Virus genome (UHGV): UHGV-1566471
DNA length: 11,872 nt
DNA from: a virus
Direction: 5' to 3' (one strand)
Numbering within the stretch: position 1 is the stretch's first letter; every line of letters begins with the position of its first letter. The notes under the pieces were generated by a model that made no database searches, was not told where the DNA came from, and saw nothing but the letters and a program-made list of their open reading frames with translations. A program made the translations under genes and the position numbers. Below are positions 1 to 11,872 of this stretch, piece by piece.

Positions 1-257
1 ACCGAAAAAACAAAACTTCCGTCAGCTTTTTCAAATTCATTTTCATAGCAGTTGTCAACAGGCGGTTCTGAAAATACTGTTCCAAGAGCCTGTTTGTAAG
101 TTGCTTCACTAAGATTTTCAACATCATAACGAATAAGCACTCTGACATTTGTAATACTCTTTATACCAAGATAGCGCTTTACTTCTTCTTTGAGTTCTTT
201 TGCATGTACTGCATATGGCTGTTTCTTTTCAACATAAATCCTTCTTACACTTCCCAT
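1..257 (-). CDS. 5' part (about 85 codons) of a divergently oriented low-GC gene that runs off the left edge; N-terminus resembles the N-terminal domain of single-chain large PurL (FGAM synthase) of low-GC bacteria
   Basis: Minus-strand ATG at 255-257 preceded by GGAGG at 7-nt spacing (revcomp of 258-272 = ggaggcaccgca+ATG). Open to the window edge, translating MGSVRRIYVEKKQPYAVHAKELKEEVKRYLGIKSITNVRVLIRYDVENLSEATYKQALGTVFSEPPVDNCYENEFEKADGSFVFSV. Absent from the ORF track because it has no stop in the window. Region is visibly AT-rich, unlike the rest. Family assignment is from memory of PurL N-termini, not a search. Confidence 0.5.
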   Translation of the reverse strand, partial: MGSVRRIYVEKKQPYAVHAKELKEEVKRYLGIKSITNVRVLIRYDVENLSEATYKQALGTVFSEPPVDNCYENEFEKADGSFVFS

Positions 258-261
258 TGCG

Positions 262-564
262 GTGCCTCCATTTCCTTTTTCTTCCTGTTCCTGCTGTTAT
301 TTTGATGAGTTGCTTGAACTACTTGGGAAGGCCGCTCAGAGTCGTACGGAAAACTTCCTTAACCGTAAGTTGTATGCAACCGTAGATGACAGGCCTGCGG
401 ATGATCCTGATGGGCTTGTGATATCTGATGATGTGAAGCTGGCGCTCCTGCTACTTGTCAGCCATTTCTACGAAAACCGCTCAACGGTTACAGACGTTGA
501 GAAAATGGAGTTGCCAATGAGCTTTAACTGGTTGGTTGCTCCTTATCGCCTTATACCACTATGA
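262..564 (+). CDS. Phage gp6-like head-tail connector protein, probably 5'-truncated or disrupted (recognisable part starts about nt 304)
   Basis: C-terminal 85 aa (DELLELLGKAAQ...LALLLLVSHFYENRSTV...LVAPYRLIPL) fit the gp6-like connector pattern. The first 14 codons (PPFPFSSCSCCYF) are read from the pyrimidine-rich upstream region of the minus-strand gene and lack the usual N-terminal motif. In-frame starts are only GTG 262 or TTG 310, neither with a convincing RBS. Stop overlaps the next start (ATGA at 561-564). Confidence 0.55.
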   Translation: MPPFPFSSCSCCYFDELLELLGKAAQSRTENFLNRKLYATVDDRPADDPDGLVISDDVKLALLLLVSHFYENRSTVTDVEKMELPMSFNWLVAPYRLIPL

Positions 565-971
565 AAATTCGTCAGGCGCAGACCAGCGCAACCTACATTC
601 TGCCTGACCCAGGCGAGCTGAATAAACGCGTCCTGATCCGCCAGCGGGTGGATATGCCCGCGGATAACTTTGGCGTGGAGCCTCAATACCCGGTTACGTT
701 CCGGACATGGGCGAAGGTTATCCAGACCAGTGCCACCACCTGGCAGGAAACCGCGCAGACCGGAGATGCCATCACCCATTACATCACCATTCGTTACCGC
801 CGGGGGATCACCGCTGATTATGAGGTGGTCTGCGGTGACAGTGTGTACCGGGTGAAACGTCAGCGCGATCTGAACGGGGCGCGGCGCTTTCTGCTGCTGG
901 AGTGTACGGAGCTGGGCGAATGTAGGCAGAGTCACGGAGGCAACAATGACGACTTCCTTTTTGCACGTTGA
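561..971 (+). CDS. Phage head closure / head-tail adaptor protein
   Basis: 136-aa ORF, ATG overlapping the upstream stop (ATGA), position directly after the gp6-like connector; translation consistent with head-tail joining family proteins. Confidence 0.75.
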   Translation: MKIRQAQTSATYILPDPGELNKRVLIRQRVDMPADNFGVEPQYPVTFRTWAKVIQTSATTWQETAQTGDAITHYITIRYRRGITADYEVVCGDSVYRVKRQRDLNGARRFLLLECTELGECRQSHGGNNDDFLFAR

Positions 972-1452
972 TTTTCAGCAGCCCGCGGAGATGCGCTTTA
1001 ACCGCGCCCGTGTCCGGCGGGCGTTTGTCACGATTGGTCAGCGTCATATGCGTGATGCCCGTCGGCTGGTGATGCGCCGTGCACGGTCGGCACCGGGTGA
1101 AAACCCCGGTTATCAGACCGGACGCCTGGCTCGTTCGATTGGTTACATGGTACCCAGAGCCAGTAAACATCGCCCTGGTTTTATGGCACGTATAGCCCCT
1201 AACCAGCGTAATGGAGAGGGAAACCGCCGTATCAACGGTGATTTTTATCCGGCTTTTTTGTTCTATGGCGTGAGGCGAGGGGCAAAGCGTCGTCGCAGCC
1301 ATCATCGTGGTGCATCCGGTGGCAGCGGCTGGCGACTGGCTCCACGTAATAACTTTATGGTGGAAACGCTTGAAAAGAACCGCAGCTGGACACGCTATTT
1401 TCTGGCGCGGGAATTGCGTAAATCACTGAAGCCGGAGCGACGACACAGATGA
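946..1452 (+). CDS. HK97 gp10-family phage protein (tail completion / neck)
   Basis: 168-aa basic protein; GGAGG 8 nt upstream of ATG 946; motif LARSIGYMV...ARIAPN...YPAFLFYG resembles the HK97 gp10 family; overlaps upstream gene by 26 nt. The long antisense ORF 808..1305 is R-rich and judged spurious. Confidence 0.75.
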   Translation: MTTSFLHVDFQQPAEMRFNRARVRRAFVTIGQRHMRDARRLVMRRARSAPGENPGYQTGRLARSIGYMVPRASKHRPGFMARIAPNQRNGEGNRRINGDFYPAFLFYGVRRGAKRRRSHHRGASGGSGWRLAPRNNFMVETLEKNRSWTRYFLARELRKSLKPERRHR

Positions 1453-2009
1453 AACTGACGCCTGTTATTGCTGCGCTGCGTGCCCGCTGCCCGTATTTTG
1501 AAAACCGGGTGGCAGGCGCGGCACAGTTCAAAAATCTGCCGGAGGTCGGAAAGCTGAGACTCCCGGCGGCGTATGTGGTACCGGGTGATGACTCTCCGGG
1601 AGAAAACAAAAGCCAGACCGACTACTGGCAGGAGCTGAAAGAGGGTTTCTCCGTGGTTGTCATACTGAGTAACGGGCGTGATGAGCGCGGTCAGTTTGCC
1701 TCGTATGATGTGGTGGACGATGTCCGGCAGATGCTCTTTAAGGCTCTGCTGGGCTGGAACCCGGAAGCGTGCGGTAACCCGATTACCTATGACGGCGGCA
1801 CGCTGCTGGATCTGAATCGTCATGAGCTGATTTATCAGTTCGATTTTTCGGTCATCAGCGAGCTGACCGAAGACGATACCCGCCAGCAGGATGACCTGAA
1901 CAGTCTGGATGAACTGCGAACGCTGGCGATTGATGTTGATTATCTCGATCCCGGTAACGGGCCTGACGGCGATATCGAACATCACACCGAAATAACCCTT
2001 CCTTCCTGA
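1449..2009 (+). CDS. Mu gp37-like (DUF1834-type) virion morphogenesis protein
   Basis: 186-aa acidic protein MKLTPVIAALRARCPYFENRVAGAAQFKNL...; ATGA start/stop overlap with upstream gene; sits immediately upstream of the DUF2635-sheath-tube block as in Mu-like tail modules. Confidence 0.7.
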   Translation: MKLTPVIAALRARCPYFENRVAGAAQFKNLPEVGKLRLPAAYVVPGDDSPGENKSQTDYWQELKEGFSVVVILSNGRDERGQFASYDVVDDVRQMLFKALLGWNPEACGNPITYDGGTLLDLNRHELIYQFDFSVISELTEDDTRQQDDLNSLDELRTLAIDVDYLDPGNGPDGDIEHHTEITLPS

Positions 2010-2017
2010 GGATCCTC

Positions 2018-2188
2018 ATGTTTGTGAAACCTGTTAAAGGGCGGTCAGTGCCTGACCCTGCCCGCGGCGACCTTTTGCCCGCCGAAGGGCGAAATGTTGA
2101 CGAGAACAACTACTGGCTGCGCCGTGAAGCAGCGGGTGATATCCGGCGCGTGAATAAAAAGGTGAATACCGATGACGATAAGCTTTAA
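2018..2188 (+). CDS. Small Mu gp38-like protein (DUF2635-type), 56 aa
   Basis: Not in the ORF track (below 60 aa). ATG 2018 preceded by GAGGA; translation MFVKPVKGRSVPDPARGDLLPAEGRNVDENNYWLRREAAGDIRRVNKKVNTDDDKL; overlaps the sheath start by 17 nt; conserved position just upstream of the sheath gene. Confidence 0.6.
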   Translation: MFVKPVKGRSVPDPARGDLLPAEGRNVDENNYWLRREAAGDIRRVNKKVNTDDDKL

Positions 2189-3668
2189 CACCATTCCGTC
2201 GAATACGCTGGTTCCGTTGTTTTATGCGGAAATGGATAACCAGGCGGCGAATACTGCACAGGACAGCGGAGCATCGTTGCTGATTGGTCACGCCAATAAC
2301 GGTGCAGAGATTGTTGCCAACAGTCTGGTGCTGATGCCGTCGGCAGACTATGCACGCCAGATTTGTGGTGCGGGAAGTCAGCTGGCGCGTATGGTCGAGG
2401 CTTATCGCCAGACCGACCCGTTTGGCGAGCTGTATGTGATTGCCGTTCCGGAAGCCGCAGGCGCGGCGGCAACGGTTACTCTGACGGTGACCGGGGCGGC
2501 AACCGAAACCGGCACGGTGAATGTGTATGTGGGACATACCCGCGTGCAGGCACCGGTGACCAACGGCGATAACGTCGCGACGATTGCCGGCAGTATCCAG
2601 GATGCCATCAATGCCGTTCCGGCCCTGCCGTTTACGGCCTCATCTTCGGCTGGCGTGGTCACACTGACCGCGCGTCATAAGGGACTTTGCGGGAATGAAA
2701 TTCCTGTCAGCCTCAATTACTACGGCTTTGGTGGGGGCGAAGTGCTGCCAGCGGGTGTACAGATTGCTGTGGCGACGGGTACCGCCGGAACGGGCGCTCC
2801 TGTTCTCACCGGTGCGGTGGCTGCAATGGCGGATGAGCCGTTTGATTATATCGGCCTGCCGTTCAACGACACGGCCTCCGTTAACACGCTGGTGACCGAG
2901 ATGAACGATACCAGCGGTCGCTGGAGCTATGCGCGTCAGCTGTATGGTCATGTGTATACGTCAAAGACCGGTACGCTGTCAGAACTGGTGACCGCAGGTG
3001 ACCAGTTTAACCAGCAGCACATTACCCTGGCGGGGTACGAAAAAGAAACCCAGACACCTGCCGACGAGCTGGCGGCAAGCCGTACCGCCCGCGCAGCGGT
3101 GTTTATCCGCAACGATCCGGCACGTCCCACGCAGACCGGTGAGCTGGTGGGTATGCTGCCTGCGCCGAAGGGGAAACGGTTCACGATGACCGAGCAGCAG
3201 ACCCTGCTGTCTCATGGCGTGGCAACGGCGTATGTCGAAAGCGGGGTACTGCGCATTCAGCGTGATGTCACCACGTACAGGAAAAATGCTTACGGGGTTG
3301 CGGATAACAGCTACCTCGACAGCGAGACGCTGCATACCAGCGCGTATGTGCTGCGCAAACTGAAATCCGTCATTACCAGTAAGTACGGGCGTCACAAGCT
3401 TGCCAGTGACGGTACCCGCTTTGGTCCCGGTCAGGCGATTGTCACCCCGGCGGTGATCAAAGGGGAACTGCTGGCAACCTACCGTCAGCTTGAGCGTGCG
3501 GGGATCGTGGAAAACTACGAACTGTTTAAGCAGTACCTGGTTGTGGAGCGTGATGCCAGCGATCCGAACCGCCTGAACACGCTGTTCCCGCCTGACTATG
3601 TTAACCAGCTGCGTGTCTTTGCCGTGGTTAACCAGTTCCGTCTTCAGTATTCAGAGGAGTCCGCATAA
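2172..3668 (+). CDS. Contractile tail sheath protein (Mu gpL-like)
   Basis: 498-aa ORF, N-terminus MTISFNTIPSNTLVPLFYAEMDN typical of Mu-like sheath proteins; followed by the tube gene with TAATG overlap. Confidence 0.9.
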   Translation: MTISFNTIPSNTLVPLFYAEMDNQAANTAQDSGASLLIGHANNGAEIVANSLVLMPSADYARQICGAGSQLARMVEAYRQTDPFGELYVIAVPEAAGAAATVTLTVTGAATETGTVNVYVGHTRVQAPVTNGDNVATIAGSIQDAINAVPALPFTASSSAGVVTLTARHKGLCGNEIPVSLNYYGFGGGEVLPAGVQIAVATGTAGTGAPVLTGAVAAMADEPFDYIGLPFNDTASVNTLVTEMNDTSGRWSYARQLYGHVYTSKTGTLSELVTAGDQFNQQHITLAGYEKETQTPADELAASRTARAAVFIRNDPARPTQTGELVGMLPAPKGKRFTMTEQQTLLSHGVATAYVESGVLRIQRDVTTYRKNAYGVADNSYLDSETLHTSAYVLRKLKSVITSKYGRHKLASDGTRFGPGQAIVTPAVIKGELLATYRQLERAGIVENYELFKQYLVVERDASDPNRLNTLFPPDYVNQLRVFAVVNQFRLQYSEESA

Positions 3669-4024
3669 TGGCCCGTATCGGGGGAACCTGTTATTTCAAA
3701 ATTGACGGTCAGCAGCTATCGCTGACCGGCGGCATTGAGGTGCCCATGAACAGGACGGTCAATGATGACATCATCGGCCTGGACGGTTCAGTGGACCGCA
3801 AGGAAACTCACCGTGCGCCTTATGTCAAAGGGACCTTCAAGGTGCCGAAGAATTTTCCGGTGAACAAAATCACCTCGTCTGATGAGATGACAATCACTGC
3901 CGAGCTGGCGAACGGTCAGGTCTATGTACTGTCGTCTGCCTGGCTGCACGGCGAAGCGAACCATAATGCCGAAGAAGGCACGGTCGATCTTGAGTTCCAC
4001 GGTGAAGAAGGGGATTACCAGTAA
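3668..4024 (+). CDS. Tail tube protein (Mu gpM-like)
   Basis: 118-aa ORF immediately after the sheath; GAGGAG upstream; TAATG overlap at both ends; size and position match tube proteins of contractile tails. Confidence 0.85.
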   Translation: MARIGGTCYFKIDGQQLSLTGGIEVPMNRTVNDDIIGLDGSVDRKETHRAPYVKGTFKVPKNFPVNKITSSDEMTITAELANGQVYVLSSAWLHGEANHNAEEGTVDLEFHGEEGDYQ

Positions 4025-4293
4025 TGAAAGAGCTTGAGTTAAAGAAACCGATTACTGCTCATGGCGAGACACTCTCCGTACTGGAGTTTGATGAACCCAC
4101 CGGGAAGGATGTCCGCGAGCTGGGGTATCCCTACCAGATGAATCAGGATGAGTCAGTCAGACTTCTGGCGCATGTGGTGTCGAAATACATTGTGCGGCTG
4201 GCGAAAGTGCCGCAAAGCTCTGTCGACCAGATGTCTCCGGCAGACCTGAATGCAGCGGCGTGGCTTGTGGCTGGTTTTTTCCTCCAGGCCTGA
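4024..4293 (+). CDS. Tail assembly chaperone, short (in-frame) product
   Basis: 89-aa ORF between tube and tape measure genes; its 3' end overlaps a second ORF in the -1 frame, the conserved two-ORF arrangement of tail chaperones. Confidence 0.8.
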   Translation: MKELELKKPITAHGETLSVLEFDEPTGKDVRELGYPYQMNQDESVRLLAHVVSKYIVRLAKVPQSSVDQMSPADLNAAAWLVAGFFLQA

Positions 4294-4442
4294 CGGCTGA
4301 ATACCTCACTGATCGCTTCTTTGACTGCGCCAGCTACTGGCGCATTAATCCTTTCGAATTGCTGAATATGCCGATCAGTGAAATTCCCTTACTGGTCAGT
4401 CAGGCAAACAGGATAGAGCAGGAGAAACGCACACATGGCTGA
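4024..4442 (+). CDS. Tail assembly chaperone, long product by programmed -1 ribosomal frameshift at T TTT TTC (4275-4281)
   Basis: Slippery heptamer T-TTT-TTC in X-XXY-YYZ register of the upstream frame (codons GGT TTT TTC); the -1 frame stays open from 4260 to the stop at 4440-4442, which overlaps the tape measure start at 4435. Frameshifting is predicted, not shown. Confidence 0.55.
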
Positions 4443-6270
4443 ATTTGAGCTTAAGGCGTTGATCACCGGTGTCGACAGGCTTTCTCCCGCGCTGTCGAAA
4501 ATGCAAAAGAAAATCCGGGGATTTAAACGCCAGGCGGAAGAAGCGTCACAGGGTGGGCTGGCGCTTGGTGGCGGACTGGCAGCGGGTCTGACGCTTTCCC
4601 TGAAATCTTATGCCGATCAGGAAAACGCCGCCACCGGGCTGAAAGTCGCCATGATGGATGCGAACGGCGAGGTTGGAAAGAGCTTTCAGGACATCAATAA
4701 ACTGGCTATTGGCCTGGGTAACCAGCTACCCGGTACAACGGCTGATTTCCAGAACATGATGCAGATGCTGGTGCGTCAGGGGATCCCGGCAGAAAACATT
4801 CTGGGTGGTGTGGGTAAAGCGACAGCTTATCTTGCGGTACAACTGAAAAAAACACCGGAAGCGGCTGCTGAGTTTGCTGCAAAGATGCAGGATGCTACCG
4901 GAACGGCGTCAGAAGACATGATGGGGCTGTTCGACACTATCCAGAAGGCGTTTTATCTGGGCGTTGACGATACCAACATGTTGTCCTTCTTCACTAAAAC
5001 CAGTTCTGTTCTGAAGATGGTGAACAAGGACGGTCTTCAGGCTGCACAGAGCCTTGCCCCCATCAGCGTCATGATGGATCAGATGGGGATGAACGGGGAG
5101 TCGGCAGGTAATGCCCTGCGAAAAGTTATCCAGTCCGGATTAAGCGTTAAGAAAATCAGGGACGTCAATAAAGTCATGGCCCGCCAGAAACTCGGGGTAC
5201 AGCTCGATTTTACTGACGGCAAAGGGAGTTTTGGCGGTCTTGATAACATGTTTAAACAACTGGCAAAGCTGCGAAAACTGACCGACGTTAAGCGAACAGG
5301 TGTACTTAAGGCAATATTTGGTGATGATGCCGAAACCCTTCAGGTGGTAAATGCTCTGATCGATAAAGGAAAGGATGGTTACGATCAGATCCAGCAGAAG
5401 ATGAATAAACAGGCCAGTCTGAATAAACGTGTTCAGGCCCAGCTTGGTACGCTGTCCAACCTGTGGGAGGCAATGACGGGGACCGCAACTAACGGCCTTG
5501 CGGCTATTGGCGGCGCATTTTCTGGTGACGCCAAAAATATCACGCAATGGCTGGGGGAGTTAGGGGAAAAATTCACGAAGTTTGCGGATGAAAATCCCCG
5601 GGTTATTCGCGGCGTCGTCGGGCTTGCTGCCGGTCTTGCGATTCTGAAACTGGGATTGATGGGCGTGGGCAGTGCCATCAGTATCGTCAGCAGGATCATG
5701 TCGATGACGCCGATTGGCATGATTGCGACGGCGATTGCCCTGGCTGCGGGATTAATTATCACTAACTGGGATGTTGTCGGACCTTATTTTAAGAAACTCT
5801 GGGAAACCATTAGTCCTTATTTTGAGGCTGGCTGGGAACTTCTGAAGAAGGTTTTTGCCTGGTCGCCGCTGGGGATGGTGATCAATAACTGGGGACCGGT
5901 TGTTAAGTGGTTTCAGGATATGTGGGATAAGCTGAAGCCGATTATTGAATGGTTTACCGACAGTTCCGGTGACACGGTCGATGCCATTAACTCGGCGCAG
6001 TGGGGCGCGGGTGCTTATGATGCTTATGGGACGGGATTCCCGGCGCGGGGATACACACCTTATCCGGCGATGGATCCGGCTCAGGCAAACAACGCCTCCG
6101 ATGCCACAGGCCCGAATCCCTTCATGATTAACAAAGCTTCTGCGCCAAAAGTTGATGGTGAGATCAAGGTCTCTTTTGTGAATTCGCCTCCGGGTATGCG
6201 GGTTATGGAAACGCGATCCAGCGGTTTTGATGTCAGCCATGATGTTGGCTATACGCGCTTTGGCAGGTAA
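4435..6270 (+). CDS. Tail tape measure protein
   Basis: 611-aa ORF directly after the chaperone pair; Gly/Ala-rich, helix-prone N-terminal part and a hydrophobic segment (VVGLAAGLAILKLGLMGVGSAISIV...IATAIALAAGLIITNW) typical of tape measure proteins. Confidence 0.9.
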   Translation: MAEFELKALITGVDRLSPALSKMQKKIRGFKRQAEEASQGGLALGGGLAAGLTLSLKSYADQENAATGLKVAMMDANGEVGKSFQDINKLAIGLGNQLPGTTADFQNMMQMLVRQGIPAENILGGVGKATAYLAVQLKKTPEAAAEFAAKMQDATGTASEDMMGLFDTIQKAFYLGVDDTNMLSFFTKTSSVLKMVNKDGLQAAQSLAPISVMMDQMGMNGESAGNALRKVIQSGLSVKKIRDVNKVMARQKLGVQLDFTDGKGSFGGLDNMFKQLAKLRKLTDVKRTGVLKAIFGDDAETLQVVNALIDKGKDGYDQIQQKMNKQASLNKRVQAQLGTLSNLWEAMTGTATNGLAAIGGAFSGDAKNITQWLGELGEKFTKFADENPRVIRGVVGLAAGLAILKLGLMGVGSAISIVSRIMSMTPIGMIATAIALAAGLIITNWDVVGPYFKKLWETISPYFEAGWELLKKVFAWSPLGMVINNWGPVVKWFQDMWDKLKPIIEWFTDSSGDTVDAINSAQWGAGAYDAYGTGFPARGYTPYPAMDPAQANNASDATGPNPFMINKASAPKVDGEIKVSFVNSPPGMRVMETRSSGFDVSHDVGYTRFGR

Positions 6271-6293
6271 TGAAAAATTAATCTGTTAATGAG

Positions 6294-6316
6294 TCCCACT
6301 CCGGTGGGATTTTTTA
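6294..6316 (+). terminator. Possible weak intrinsic terminator or attenuator between tape measure and DNA circularization genes
   Basis: Hairpin TCCCAC (6294-6299), loop TCCG, GTGGGA (6304-6309), followed by a run of six T (6310-6315). Stem is only 6 bp, so at most partial termination. Confidence 0.3.
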
Positions 6317-6330
6317 TGTACGGAGTTTAT

Positions 6331-7659
6331 ATGACGTGGAAAGACAGACTTCAGGACGCGTCATTTCGCGGTGTGCCGTTTAAGGTTGAAGAAGAAAGTG
6401 CGGGAACCGGTCGCCGTGTGGAAACGCACGAATACCCGAACCGCGACAAACCCTATACCGAAGACCTGGGGAAAATCACTTTCCGCCCGTCCATCACGGC
6501 TTATGTGGTGGGAGATGACTGCTTTGACCAGCGCGATCGCCTGATTGACGCGCTGAATAAACCCGGTCCTGGCACGCTTGTCCATCCGACTTACGGTGAG
6601 CTGAAAGCCTGTGTTGACGGGGAAGTTCGGGTCAGCACATCGAAGAGTGAAGGGCGTATTGTCCGCTTTGACCTGAAGTTTGTCGAAGCGGGAGAACTCT
6701 CTTACCCCACATCAGGTGCGGCGACGGCGCAGACGCTGATGTCATCCTGTTCTGCACTGGATGACTGCATCAGTGATAGCTTCAGTGGTTTCAGTATCGA
6801 TGGCGTGGCAGATTTTGTGCAGAACGACGTCGTCGGTAATGCCAGCACAATGCTTGGGTATGTTTCTGATGCGATGAAAGTGGTGGATTTTGCCGTATCG
6901 GATGCCGCCAGGCTGTTGCAGGGGGATATCTCGGTACTTCTGCCGCCGCCATCGTCAGGCAAAAATTTCGTTGAGCAGGTGCAGAAAATGTGGCGTACCG
7001 GGAAACGCCTTTATGGTAACGCCAGCGACCTGGTCACCATGATCAAAACGCTTTCCGGTGTCAGCCTCGGCAGCGATCTGCAACCGCGCGGCGTCTGGAA
7101 AACGGACAGTAAAACCACCGCCACGGCGACGCAGCAGCGTAACGTGGTTGCCAGCACCCTTCGTACGACCGCAATCAGCGAAGCGGCGTATGCCGTCACC
7201 CGATTGCCTGCGCCAACAACTTCCGCGGTGATGCAGAATGCCGCAGTGGGGCAGGCAACAACACCCGCGCAGAGCACCGGCTGGCCTTCTGTCACGCATC
7301 CGGCACTGAACAATGCACCGGCGGTGAAAAACACGGTTGACCTGCCAACGTGGGAAGAACTGACCGACATTCGCGACACACTGAATACGGCAATTGATAA
7401 GGAGTTGTCCCGTACAACCAGTGATGCGCTGTTTCTGGCGCTGCGCCGGGTGAAAGCAGATCTGAATGCGGATATCAACACGCGCCTTGAACAGTCTGCT
7501 CGGATCATTCAGCGCACGCCGGATGAGGTTTTACCCGCGCTGGTGCTGGCGGCGGCCTGGTTTGATAACGCGGCGCGTGACGCGGACATTATCCGGCGTA
7601 ATGCCATTACGCATCCCGGCTTTGTGCCGGTGATCCCTCTGAAGGTGCCAGTGCAATGA
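6331..7659 (+). CDS. DNA circularization protein (Mu gpN / gp43-like)
   Basis: N-terminus MTWKDRLQDASFRGVPFKVEEE matches the DNA circulation protein N-terminal motif. ATG 6331 preferred (GGAG 4 nt upstream); the ORF track start 6289 and ATG 6316 are in-frame alternatives. Stop overlaps the next start (ATGA 7656-7659). Confidence 0.85.
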   Translation: MTWKDRLQDASFRGVPFKVEEESAGTGRRVETHEYPNRDKPYTEDLGKITFRPSITAYVVGDDCFDQRDRLIDALNKPGPGTLVHPTYGELKACVDGEVRVSTSKSEGRIVRFDLKFVEAGELSYPTSGAATAQTLMSSCSALDDCISDSFSGFSIDGVADFVQNDVVGNASTMLGYVSDAMKVVDFAVSDAARLLQGDISVLLPPPSSGKNFVEQVQKMWRTGKRLYGNASDLVTMIKTLSGVSLGSDLQPRGVWKTDSKTTATATQQRNVVASTLRTTAISEAAYAVTRLPAPTTSAVMQNAAVGQATTPAQSTGWPSVTHPALNNAPAVKNTVDLPTWEELTDIRDTLNTAIDKELSRTTSDALFLALRRVKADLNADINTRLEQSARIIQRTPDEVLPALVLAAAWFDNAARDADIIRRNAITHPGFVPVIPLKVPVQ

Positions 7660-8735
7660 ACGACAATGTCACGCTACGGGTAAATGGCCGGGAGTGGAAT
7701 GGCTGGACATCGGTGCGCATCGGTGCCGGTATTGAACGGCTGGCGCGGGATTTCAGTGTGGAGATCACTCGCCAGTGGCCGGGAGATGAGGGTATCACCA
7801 CGCTTCAGCCGCGCATTAAAAACGGTTCAAAAGTGGAAGTGCTGATTGGTGATGAGCTGGTGATCACCGGCTGGGTGGAGGCGACTCCCGTTCGTTACGA
7901 TGCCCGTTCGGTCAGCACCGGTATTGCCGGACGTAGTCTGACGGCTGACCTGATTGACTGTGCAGCCGAACCGACACAGTTTAACGGACGCTCGCTGGTG
8001 CAGATTGCGCAGGCGCTTGCTGCGCCTTTCGGCATTGAGGTGGTGAACAACGGTGCACCGTCGGATGTTATTCCTGATGTCCAGCCTGATCACGGTGAAA
8101 CGGTGATCGAGGTGATCAACAAAATACTCGGTCAGCAGCAGGCGCTGGCTTACGACGACCCGCACGGCAGGCTGGTGATTGGCGGTATTGGCTCAACGCG
8201 GGCACATACCGCGCTGGTACTTGGGGAAAACATCCTTTCCTGTGATACGGAGAAGAGTGTTCGGGAGCGTTTTTCAGTTTACCAGGTGGCGGGGCAGCGT
8301 GCCGGAAACGACGATGATTTCGGTGAGGCCACCACCACCGCGCTGCGGGCCCGCACAGAGGACGCATTTATTGCCCGTTACCGTCCGATGTATATCAGGC
8401 AGACAGGGCAGGCCACGGGGGCAGGTTGTATTGCGCGTGCTGACTTTGAAGCCCGACAACGGGCGGCGCGGACGGATGAAACCACCTATGTGGTGCAGGG
8501 CTGGCGACAGGGTAACGGTACGCTGTGGCAGCCCAACCAGCGGGTGATTGTCTTCGATCCGGTCTGTGGTTTCGACAATACCGAACTGCTTGTCTCGGAA
8601 GTCACGTTTACTCAGGACCAGAACGGCACCCTGACGGAAATCCGTGTCGGCCCACCTGATGCTTATCTTCCTGAACCCGAAGCCCCCGGCGCGCGGAAAA
8701 AGAAAAAAGCCAGAGTACAGGAGGACCCGTTCTGA
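7656..8735 (+). CDS. Baseplate hub / tail protein (Mu gpP / gp44-like)
   Basis: 359-aa ORF, N-terminus MNDNVTLRVNGREWNGWTSVRIG typical of Mu P-like proteins; lysine-rich C-terminus; TGATG overlap with next gene. Confidence 0.85.
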   Translation: MNDNVTLRVNGREWNGWTSVRIGAGIERLARDFSVEITRQWPGDEGITTLQPRIKNGSKVEVLIGDELVITGWVEATPVRYDARSVSTGIAGRSLTADLIDCAAEPTQFNGRSLVQIAQALAAPFGIEVVNNGAPSDVIPDVQPDHGETVIEVINKILGQQQALAYDDPHGRLVIGGIGSTRAHTALVLGENILSCDTEKSVRERFSVYQVAGQRAGNDDDFGEATTTALRARTEDAFIARYRPMYIRQTGQATGAGCIARADFEARQRAARTDETTYVVQGWRQGNGTLWQPNQRVIVFDPVCGFDNTELLVSEVTFTQDQNGTLTEIRVGPPDAYLPEPEAPGARKKKKARVQEDPF

Positions 8736-9283
8736 TGAGGACGATTGAAGCCATGCAGCGACAACTCCTCGGCCTGATTGGGCGGGCCGTGGTGAAAAGC
8801 ATCAGTGCCGCCACGAAATGTCAGACCGTGGATGTGTCCCTGATTGCCGGTGAACCCAAAGCCGGGGTTGAACATCTTGAACCCTACGGTTTTACCGCAA
8901 GGGCAAACAGCGGTGCGGAAGCGGTGGTGTTGTTTCCGGATGGCGACCGTTCTCATGCAGTGGTTGTTACGGTGTCGGACCGGCGCTACCGCCTGAAAGG
9001 GCTGCAGACGGGTGAGGTGGCTGTCTATGACGATCAGGGGCAGTCTGTGACGCTGACCCGGGAGGGGATCGTGGTGGACGGTGCAGGTAAAACGATCACG
9101 TTTCGCAATGCGCCCAGAGCACGTTTTGAAATGGACCTGGAAGTGACAGGACAGGTGAAAGACCTGTGCGACTCCGGCGGCACCACCATGTCAGCGATGC
9201 GGCTTGCCTATAACGGGCATCGTCACAGAGAGAACGGTCAGGGCAGTAACACCGACAAACCTGATAAAGCGATGGAGGCATGA
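8735..9283 (+). CDS. Baseplate assembly protein V / central spike (Mu gp45-like)
   Basis: 182-aa ORF in the position of Mu gp45; translation consistent with gpV-like spike proteins. Confidence 0.8.
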   Translation: MRTIEAMQRQLLGLIGRAVVKSISAATKCQTVDVSLIAGEPKAGVEHLEPYGFTARANSGAEAVVLFPDGDRSHAVVVTVSDRRYRLKGLQTGEVAVYDDQGQSVTLTREGIVVDGAGKTITFRNAPRARFEMDLEVTGQVKDLCDSGGTTMSAMRLAYNGHRHRENGQGSNTDKPDKAMEA

Positions 9284-9708
9284 TGGAACTGTGGCTGACG
9301 GTGAACGGTAAACGCACCTGCGCCAGCGCACAGCTGGATCCGCTGACCCGCGCCGTGGTGATTTCCCTGTTTACCTGGCGGCGGGCGGAGCCTGATGACA
9401 ACGCCGACGTCCCGATGGGATGGTGGGGGGATACCTGGCCTGCGGTACAGAATGACCGTTACGGCTCCCGACTGTGGCTGCTTCAGCGCAGCAAACTGAC
9501 CAATCAGCTGGTGCAGACGGTAAGGGGGTATATCCGCGAATGCCTGCAATGGATGATTGATGACGGCGTGGTGTCCCGTATTGATCTGGATATCCGCCGC
9601 ACCGGGATTAATGAACTGGGTAACAGTATCACTCTCTGGCGTCGTGACGGACCGGTAATGATTTCTTTTGATGATCTGTGGAGTGCGATAACGCATGGCG
9701 GACAGTGA
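9280..9708 (+). CDS. Phage GP46-family baseplate protein (Mu gp46-like)
   Basis: 142-aa ORF, ATGA overlap with upstream gene; conserved position between the gpV-like and J-like genes. Confidence 0.8.
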   Translation: MMELWLTVNGKRTCASAQLDPLTRAVVISLFTWRRAEPDDNADVPMGWWGDTWPAVQNDRYGSRLWLLQRSKLTNQLVQTVRGYIRECLQWMIDDGVVSRIDLDIRRTGINELGNSITLWRRDGPVMISFDDLWSAITHGGQ

Positions 9709-10753
9709 ATTTCAGCGCCCGACGCTGGCAGAAAATATCAGTATGCTCCGTAACGATTTATTCGCCAGGCTGGACGTCAGCGACACGCTCCGGCGCATGG
9801 ATGAAGACGTGCGGGCAAAGGTGTATGCGGCGGCGCTGCATACGGTTTACGGTTACATCGATTATCTGGCAATGAACATGCTGCCTGACCTGTGCGATGA
9901 GTCCTGGCTGGCGCGACATGCTGCGATGAAACGGTGTCCGCGCAAGGGGGCCACGGCTGCCAGCGGGTATATGCGCTGGGAAGGTGTCAGCGATGGCCTG
10001 AAGGTGACCGCCGGGAGTGTTATTCAGCGCGATGACCTGGTTCAGTACACGGCAACTGCCGATGCAACCAGCACCGGTGGTGTCCTGAGCGTGCCGATCG
10101 CCTGCTCAAGTGCAGGCGCGGTCGGTAACGCTGACGACGGTACGTCATTAATCCTGGTCACGCCGGTTAATGGTCTGCCGTCTTCCGGCGAGGCAGATAC
10201 CCTGACAGGTGGATTTGATATTGAAGAGCTGGAAACGTGGCGCGCCCGCGTCATTGAGCGGTATTACTGGACGCCTCAGGGCGGGGCTGACGGGGACTAT
10301 GTCGTCTGGGCTAAAGAAGTGCCCGGCATTACCCGCGCATGGACATACCGACACTGGATGGGAACGGGGACTGTCGGTGTGATGATAGCCAGCAGTGACC
10401 TGATTAATCCCATTCCGGAAGAATCAACGGAAACGGCAGCAAGACAACATATCGGGCCACTGGCCCCGGTGGCAGGCTCTGATTTGTATGTATTCAGGCC
10501 GGTGGCACATACGGTGGATTTTCATATCCGCGTGACGCCGGACACACCAGAAATACGGGCTGCCATTACCGCGGAGTTGCGTTCGTTCCTGCTGCGTGAT
10601 GGTTATCCGCAGGGAGAACTGAAGGTATCGCGTATCAGTGAAGCGATTTCCGGTGCGAACGGGGAATACAGCCATCAGTTGCTTGCACCGGCAGACAATA
10701 TCTCCATTGCAAAAAATGAACTGGCGGTACTGGGGACGATTTCATGGACGTGA
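9695..10753 (+). CDS. Baseplate J-like wedge protein (Mu gp47-like)
   Basis: 352-aa ORF; size and order (gp46 then J-like then gp48-like then fiber) match Mu-like baseplates and the e14 jayE-ymfQ-stfP arrangement. Confidence 0.85.
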
Positions 10754-11328
10754 CAAACGATGATTACATCCGTCTGTTGTCGGCACTGTTGCCCCCCGGT
10801 CCGGCGTGGTCAGCCAGCGATCCGGCGATTGCCGGTGCGGCACCGTCATTAACCCGCGTTCATCAGCGTGCGGATGCCCTGATGCGGGAGCTGGATCCGC
10901 GCACCACCACTGAACTGATAAACCGCTGGGAGCGTCTGTGCGGTCTGCCGGATGAATGTATTCCGGCGGGAACGCAGACCCTTCGCCAGCGTCAGCAACG
11001 GCTGGATGCGAAGGTTAACCTGGCGGGCGGCATCAACGAGAATTTTTATCTTGCACAGCTTGCTGCCCTGGGCAGACCAGACGCCACCATCACGCGATAC
11101 GACAAAAGCACGTTCACCTGCTCATCGGTCTGTACTGACGCGGTGAATGCGCCGGAATGGCGGTATTACTGGCAGGTCAACATGCCAGCCGCCACAAACA
11201 CCACCTGGATGACATGTGGCGATCCCTGTGATTCCGCGCTGCGTATCTGGGGCGACACCGTTGTCGAATGTGTGCTTAACAAACTCTGCCCGTCGCATAC
11301 CAACGTAATTTTTAAATATCCGGAGTAA
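10744..11328 (+). CDS. Mu gp48-like / YmfQ-like tail protein (DUF2313-type)
   Basis: 194-aa ORF overlapping the J-like gene by 10 nt; Cys-containing C-terminus; sits immediately upstream of the tail fiber gene as in e14 and Mu-like prophages. Confidence 0.8.
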
Positions 11329-11331
11329 TCC

Positions 11332-11872
11332 ATGCATCGTATAGACACGAAAACCGCGCAGAAGGATAAGTTCGGCGCGGGTAAAAACGGTTTTACCCGT
11401 GGTAACCCCCAGACCGGCACGCCTGCCACCGATCTGGATGATGACTACTTTGATATGTTGCAGGAAGAACTCTGCAGCGTGGTGGAGGCATCCGGTGCCA
11501 GCCTGGAGAAGGGGCGGCATGACCAGCTGCTTACCGCGCTTCGTGCACTGCTGTTAAGCCGCAAGAATCCGTTTGGCGATATCAAATCGGATGGCACGGT
11601 GAAAACGGCTCTCGAAAACCTTGGTTTGGGAGAAGCGGCAAAAAGGAATGTGGGGACAGAGACAAACCAAATACCAGACATGGCTTCGTTTGCTTCTGGT
11701 CCGGGTTGGATGAAATTTCCATCTGGTAAAATTATTCAGTATGGCTATCATACATCCAGTAACAGTAGTTCAATCATTATTAATTTCCCTATTCCTTTCC
11801 CGACTCAATGTTACGGAGTCACAGGGGGTGGAACAGATGCCAGTGCAGCAAATATTGTAGGTTGCCAGGTCA
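11332..11872 (+). CDS. Tail fiber protein, 5' part (conserved N-terminal domain plus start of AT-rich variable receptor-binding region); runs off the right edge
   Basis: GGAG 6 nt upstream of ATG 11332; N-terminus [48 protein letters not shown] is the conserved N-terminus of StfP/StfE/Mu S-type side tail fibers; open to the window edge (180 codons). Not in the ORF track because no stop is present. Confidence 0.85.
11609..11634. other. Candidate 26-bp crossover site for a Gin/Cin/Pin/Hin-family serine DNA invertase (gix/pix-like), inside the tail fiber gene
   Basis: CTCTCGAAAACC-TT-GGTTTGGGAGAA: imperfect dyad (9 of 12 half-site positions symmetric) around a 2-bp core, with the AAACC/GGTTT signature of hix/gix/cix sites. 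It falls at the codons for ALENLGLGE, where constant and variable fiber parts join in invertible fiber systems, and coincides with a drop in GC downstream. Confidence 0.55.

Follow-up and report, generated by a model that had tools for sequence, protein, structure and literature searches.

The window analysed here, that is, the whole stretch of DNA of 11,872 nt, opens with an abrupt break in composition, and it raises the question of how the start of a bacterial purine-biosynthesis gene came to lie directly against a phage neck and tail module whose connector gene lacks its own start. The initial annotation had offered two answers: foreign DNA inserted into a prophage, in which case the cargo to the left would be the likely site of anything novel, or a chimera of assembly or construction. 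Judging from comparison of the sequence with the native relatives of each flank, we conclude that the break is very probably an artefactual inter-genome chimera of two unrelated gut organisms, carried on a low-coverage metagenome contig, and that a mis-join in the de Bruijn graph of the assembler is its most likely cause, a template-switched library molecule being less likely.

An exact-protein look-up with the tape-measure protein retrieved the contig ERZ1303424 NODE_1983_length_11872_cov_2.302530 (ENA), which is the entire window, identical over all 11,872 bases, and whose SPAdes-style name marks it as a node of a metagenome assembly with a k-mer coverage of 2.3. Since the window is the complete contig, nothing lies to the left of base 1, there is no left-hand cargo, and the foreign piece is a terminal tip of 303-325 nt. 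The compositional break itself is as sharp as originally described, with a GC content of 0.366 in positions 1-303 against 0.556 in 326-11872; among the 11,244 sliding 303-nt windows of the phage part, the lowest GC is 0.442 and none is as low as the tip. The features on which the argument rests are collected in Table 1.

Table 1. Features of the 11,872-nt window, with the strand on which each lies and the evidence for its assignment
Feature	Position	Strand	Evidence
purL (fused phosphoribosylformylglycinamidine synthase), first 85 codons	1..257	-	TIGR01857 and native contigs; cut by contig end
Native intergenic spacer, 39 nt, with the purL ribosome-binding site GGAGG (269-265)	258..296	-	49-mer in 10 contigs; L094 layout
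Stop codon (299-297) and last codons of the 448-aa gene upstream of purL	297..325	-	Identity to L094 and L101
Junction: 22-nt string GATGAGTTGCTTGAACTACTTG, identical in both parents	304..325		Three-way alignment
Head-tail connector (gp6-like / Ad1), SfV-type, codons 22-107 and stop	304..564	+	PF05135; alignment to intact genes
Neck, contractile tail and baseplate module of an SfV-like (Mu-type tail) E. coli prophage	561..11872	+	Pfam; nucleotide identity

The purL gene start and its native Lachnospiraceae locus

The minus strand of the low-GC tip carries a well-formed gene start, in which GGAGG (269-265) is followed by a 7-nt spacer and an ATG at 257-255, just as the initial annotation had it, and the resemblance to PurL proposed there for the encoded 85 aa proved to be genuine. 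Residues 5-84 of the fragment align with positions 1-80 of the 1239 positions of the NCBIfam model TIGR01857 (E 6.6e-18, 63.7 bits), its N-terminal domain thus matching from the start of the model; a Pfam search of the same 85 aa gave no match, and NCBIfam was required for the identification. The whole-protein cutoff of TIGR01857, 1057 bits, stands for the complete enzyme with its linker, AIRS and glutaminase domains, and the window's fragment falls below it because only 85 codons are present. The full-length gene of a native contig (L094), whose start is identical to these 85 codons, encodes 1251 aa and scores 1835 bits over positions 1-1239, above the same cutoff.

A human-gut Lachnospiraceae bacterium is the source of the fragment. 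When one genome per GTDB species was scanned with a degenerate pattern, 507 purL loci emerged, almost all of them in Lachnospiraceae and their relatives; the best match, in a human-gut Lachnospiraceae MAG (contig CAKRFU010000015.1), has 99% protein and 97% nucleotide identity. Compared with the GTDB representative MAG (L003), the window shows 9 mismatches in 317 nt, and since these lie mostly at synonymous purL positions, they represent ordinary strain variation in a working gene and not the wear of a decaying insert.

Closer relatives were retrieved with an exact 49-mer (window 255-303), which is present in 10 independent metagenome contigs, none of which has phage DNA at the purL site. Two of them, L094 (ERZ780144 NODE-384, 62.6 kb) and L101 (ERZ773190 NODE-105, 102 kb), both from gut metagenome samples other than that of the window, are 100% identical to window positions 1-325; past 325 they read AGCTGCTGCTTGATGATGAC, which is the 3' end of a 448-aa gene, with no phage sequence. 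The native layout in L094 is a 448-aa ORF (8007-9353), a 39-nt spacer and the 1251-aa purL (9393-13148). The short stretch upstream of the minus-strand start had been taken as a sign of disruption, leaving no room for a promoter of its own; this part of the initial reading did not hold, for the same 39-nt gap is native to the bacterium, and the size of the spacer is therefore uninformative on the junction.

The gene upstream of purL belongs to no Pfam or NCBIfam family. Its size depends on the strain (441-448 aa; 8007-9353 in L094 and 289-1614 in MAG L003), and its C-terminal region is repetitive, with a coding sequence rich in GAT and GAA. A separate observation concerns six unannotated human faecal virome records deposited as 'Bacteriophage sp.' (MT835862, MT836869, MT838278, MT836187, MT838725 and MT835514), which contain purL-like DNA 66-69% identical to window positions 29-259. 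A reading of positions 1-260 as a phage moron was rejected, these matches being of low identity and to other purL genes; the records suggest that bacterial chromosomal sequence, or further chimeras, may be found among deposited virome 'phage' sequences.

The SfV-like prophage module and its truncated connector gene

To the right of the tip, the gene content and the nucleotide identity are those of an ordinary SfV-like prophage. The module runs from head closure, Neck1, tail terminator, DUF2635, sheath, tube, tail chaperone and tape measure through the DNA circularisation protein, the GpP hub, Gp45, Gp46, baseplate J and Gp48 to the 5' part of the tail fibre gene, and it is collinear with the structural module of SfV-like prophages. 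Positions 304-1500 are 97.3% identical to phage SfV and reach 98.6% identity with E. coli chromosomes, and positions 304-11744 match E. coli chromosomes in a single piece at 97.3% identity. At least 80% of the window is covered in 880 of 5,426 complete E. coli genomes, and about 1,000-2,000 complete genomes of the species carry matching SfV-like prophages. Every E. coli and phage match has its left edge at exactly 304 (1,076 E. coli records, and again when the full window was used as query), and a search of the same 5,426 genomes at a sensitive setting gave no match to positions 1-303.

This edge falls inside the connector gene. The plus-strand ORF at 262-564 scores 24.1 bits against PF05135, above the gathering threshold of 21.2, and its match covers profile positions 19-100 of 101, with neither a start of its own nor the N-terminus of a complete gene. 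Intact homologues, aligned here from E. coli 50EVAW and from SfV, are 107 aa long, begin with MLLKMEEIKLQLRLDDDFSDEDELLELL and start 63 nt upstream of the point at which homology sets in at 304, so that 63 nt (21 codons) are missing from the front of the window's copy, a loss that grows to 28 codons when the shared 22 bases are credited to the bacterium. The complete 107-aa form is present in all 18 intact relatives inspected, 16 of these loci having been reached through exact copies of neighbouring proteins. GTG 262 was considered as a start codon and rejected, since the first 14 codons read from it are the antisense of the bacterial spacer; no intact homologue starting there was found, and the gene caller of the source collection places no gene between 257 and 561. 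The earlier observation that the connector lacks its N-terminus and a credible start is thereby borne out.

The opposite end of the contig also shows a local change in composition. Over the last 128 nt (11745-11872), within the tail fibre ORF that extends from 11332 to the contig end, GC falls to 0.43; none of the 5,426 complete E. coli genomes matches this segment at the nucleotide level, and tblastn matches of the tail fibre to the phage collection end at residue 138 of 180. A second chimera at this end was considered and ruled out, given that the Pfam domain Gp53-like_C (aa 128-173) crosses the boundary at 11745 within one continuous ORF. The segment therefore looks like a divergent, swapped receptor-binding tip, of the kind that belongs to natural variability.

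Two further observations on the module may be recorded. A canonical -1 slippery heptamer, T_TTT_TTC, occurs at 4275-4281 within the gene for the tail assembly chaperone (Phage_TAC_7, 4024-4293) and leads into an overlapping ORF (4260-4442) that ends at the start of the tape measure gene, which is the arrangement of the classic programmed frameshift of G/GT type. In six related prophages (L108-L113), the interval between the tape measure and DNA-circularisation genes holds an extra gene (15413-16090) of 225 aa with no Pfam family, which is absent from the window (6270-6331) and from its O157:H7-type best matches.

The shared 22-mer and the origin of the join

In the three-way alignment, identity to the Lachnospiraceae parent extends through 325 and identity to E. 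coli begins at 304; the two overlap perfectly in the 22-nt string, and the crossover lies somewhere inside it. The E. coli side of the junction is itself a common sequence, as positions 304-344 match 262 E. coli records, 78 of them at 100% including the A at 321 (ETEC H10407 being the one aligned). An earlier estimate of the overlap, 14 nt with 1 mismatch, had been obtained with MAG L003 and was superseded when closer strains showed the perfect 22-mer. This string is the sole exact match of at least 22 nt between the 13.3-kb native Lachnospiraceae contig and 13 kb of the prophage. Under a uniform model, the expected number of shared 22-mers is 2e-5 for this pair of segments and about 1.7 for complete genomes of 3 Mb and 5 Mb; a coincidence of this kind, rare but able to mislead an assembler, is therefore to be expected somewhere between two such genomes, and the join sits exactly on one. 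A blunt, homology-independent join is effectively excluded, and the joining process used the shared string.

The two flanks thus align near-identically to different organisms, neither parent contains the flank of the other, and the breakpoint lies on an exact repeat of both parents whose 22 nt are one more than the k of 21 with which SPAdes begins by default. At k=21 in a SPAdes-type de Bruijn graph, the paths of both genomes would be merged by the shared 22-mer; at about 2x coverage, the true continuations, namely the capsid side in E. coli and the upstream-gene side in the Lachnospiraceae, could be missing or clipped, and a single unbranched hybrid path would then be emitted and passed to the rounds of larger k as a pseudo-read. 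That the k=21 join survived into the final contig is something we infer, since the final k of SPAdes is normally greater than 22. Between the two options of the initial annotation, it is thus the chimera that is favoured, by a join placed on the only shared 22-mer and at the tip of a 2.3x contig, and the foreign insertion with novel cargo to the left that lacks support.

The same artefact could also have arisen at the bench, if, during library preparation or whole-genome amplification, a Lachnospiraceae strand whose extension had remained incomplete paired through the 22-nt identity with an E. coli prophage template and was elongated on it, the hybrid molecule then being faithfully assembled at the contig tip. 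We consider this origin unlikely, though far from negligible, and count it as a sub-case within the probability given to the artefact as a whole. A junction lying exactly on the shared 22-mer is what template switching predicts, the foreign tip of about 300 nt is roughly the size of one library fragment, and at a coverage of 2.3 one molecule can be enough to lengthen the end of a contig; nevertheless, 22 nt is k+1 for k=21 and fits the graph mis-join at least equally well, and the sequence does not tell the two apart. Under either mechanism of the artefact, no cell would have contained an insertion, a cargo or a disrupted prophage.

A real recombinant would require that Lachnospiraceae chromosomal DNA entered an SfV-like prophage or phage genome of E. 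coli through the 22-bp identity, with deletion of the 5' end of the connector gene and of everything upstream. In length, the shared string comes close to the minimum that RecA-dependent homologous recombination needs in E. coli, and the position of the junction is by itself compatible with a real event; the index of the collection, moreover, lists this exact contig in 2 samples, which may reflect either a duplicate deposit or an independent occurrence. Such an event is nonetheless highly improbable. The two parents belong to different phyla, and both flanks stand at their native identity (100% and 97-98.6%); the foreign DNA is confined to the 303-nt tip of a 2.3x contig; and the native Lachnospiraceae locus is free of phage DNA in 10 of 10 contigs. 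The product would be a dead prophage with a 7% purL stub, for which there is no selective rationale. The initial annotation had named recurrence of the junction in independent genomes as evidence that would count against its suspicion, and no such recurrence was recovered: exact searches with a junction 41-mer and 45-mer gave no hit in IMG/VR or in JGI metagenome contigs, the hybrid connector ORF is absent from the gene index whether begun at GTG 262 as V, at GTG 262 as M or at TTG 310, and the junction is absent from the 5,426 complete E. coli genomes. Two contigs with the same tape-measure protein (L106 and L107) are other strains, with 11 and 18 substitutions relative to the window, and because they do not reach the junction they provide no independent check. 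A laboratory construct or vector chimera would account for the abruptness of the junction and for nothing further, and its probability is close to nil, for each flank is unremarkable chromosomal or prophage DNA of a gut organism, the contig is a node from the assembly of a metagenome, and the junction shows no vector, adaptor or cloning-site sequence, being a natural 22-mer of both parents.

Significance and relation to known systems

There is no new biological feature in this finding, and its main value lies in quality control. Left uncorrected, the contig could pass for a phage carrying a bacterial purine-biosynthesis gene, that is, an apparent auxiliary metabolic gene, or for a transfer from Bacillota to E. 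coli, and either misreading would contaminate surveys of host prediction, auxiliary genes or gene transfer. The case also provides a recipe that works without reads, applicable at the tip of a low-coverage contig, in which the native relatives of each flank are found and the breakpoint is tested for a shared string of about k bases. If, against the balance of the evidence, the contig were a real recombinant formed in the gut, it would offer a direct snapshot of the capture of cross-phylum DNA by a phage through short homology, and would be a rare case in which recombination between phyla, at an identity of 22 bp, is observed directly.

Each part of the contig has a well-known counterpart. With the fused large PurL (FGAM synthase) of Bacillota, as modelled by TIGR01857, the fragment has the same N-terminal 80 model positions in common, and it differs in holding 6.8% of the native 1251-aa gene, so that no function is expected from purL in this contig. 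With Enterobacteria phage SfV and the SfV-like prophages of E. coli and Shigella, which combine an HK97-type head with a Mu-type contractile tail, positions 304-11744 are collinear and 97% identical, the order of genes from connector to tail fibre being the same; the window differs from them in a connector gene truncated at its 5' end by the artefactual join, and in the last 128 nt of the tail fibre, which are without a nucleotide counterpart in the E. coli collection. As regards the join itself, translocations between genomes are recognised as one class of misassembly in metagenomes and form a category of metaQUAST (bioRxiv 10.1101/763813). The contig shares with this class flanks near-identical to different species, a breakpoint on a short exact repeat no shorter than the smallest k, low coverage and a foreign piece at the contig tip; it differs in that the usual causes of such misassemblies are conserved genes, such as those for rRNA, or strain-level similarity, whereas here the join falls on a chance 22-mer shared by members of different phyla.
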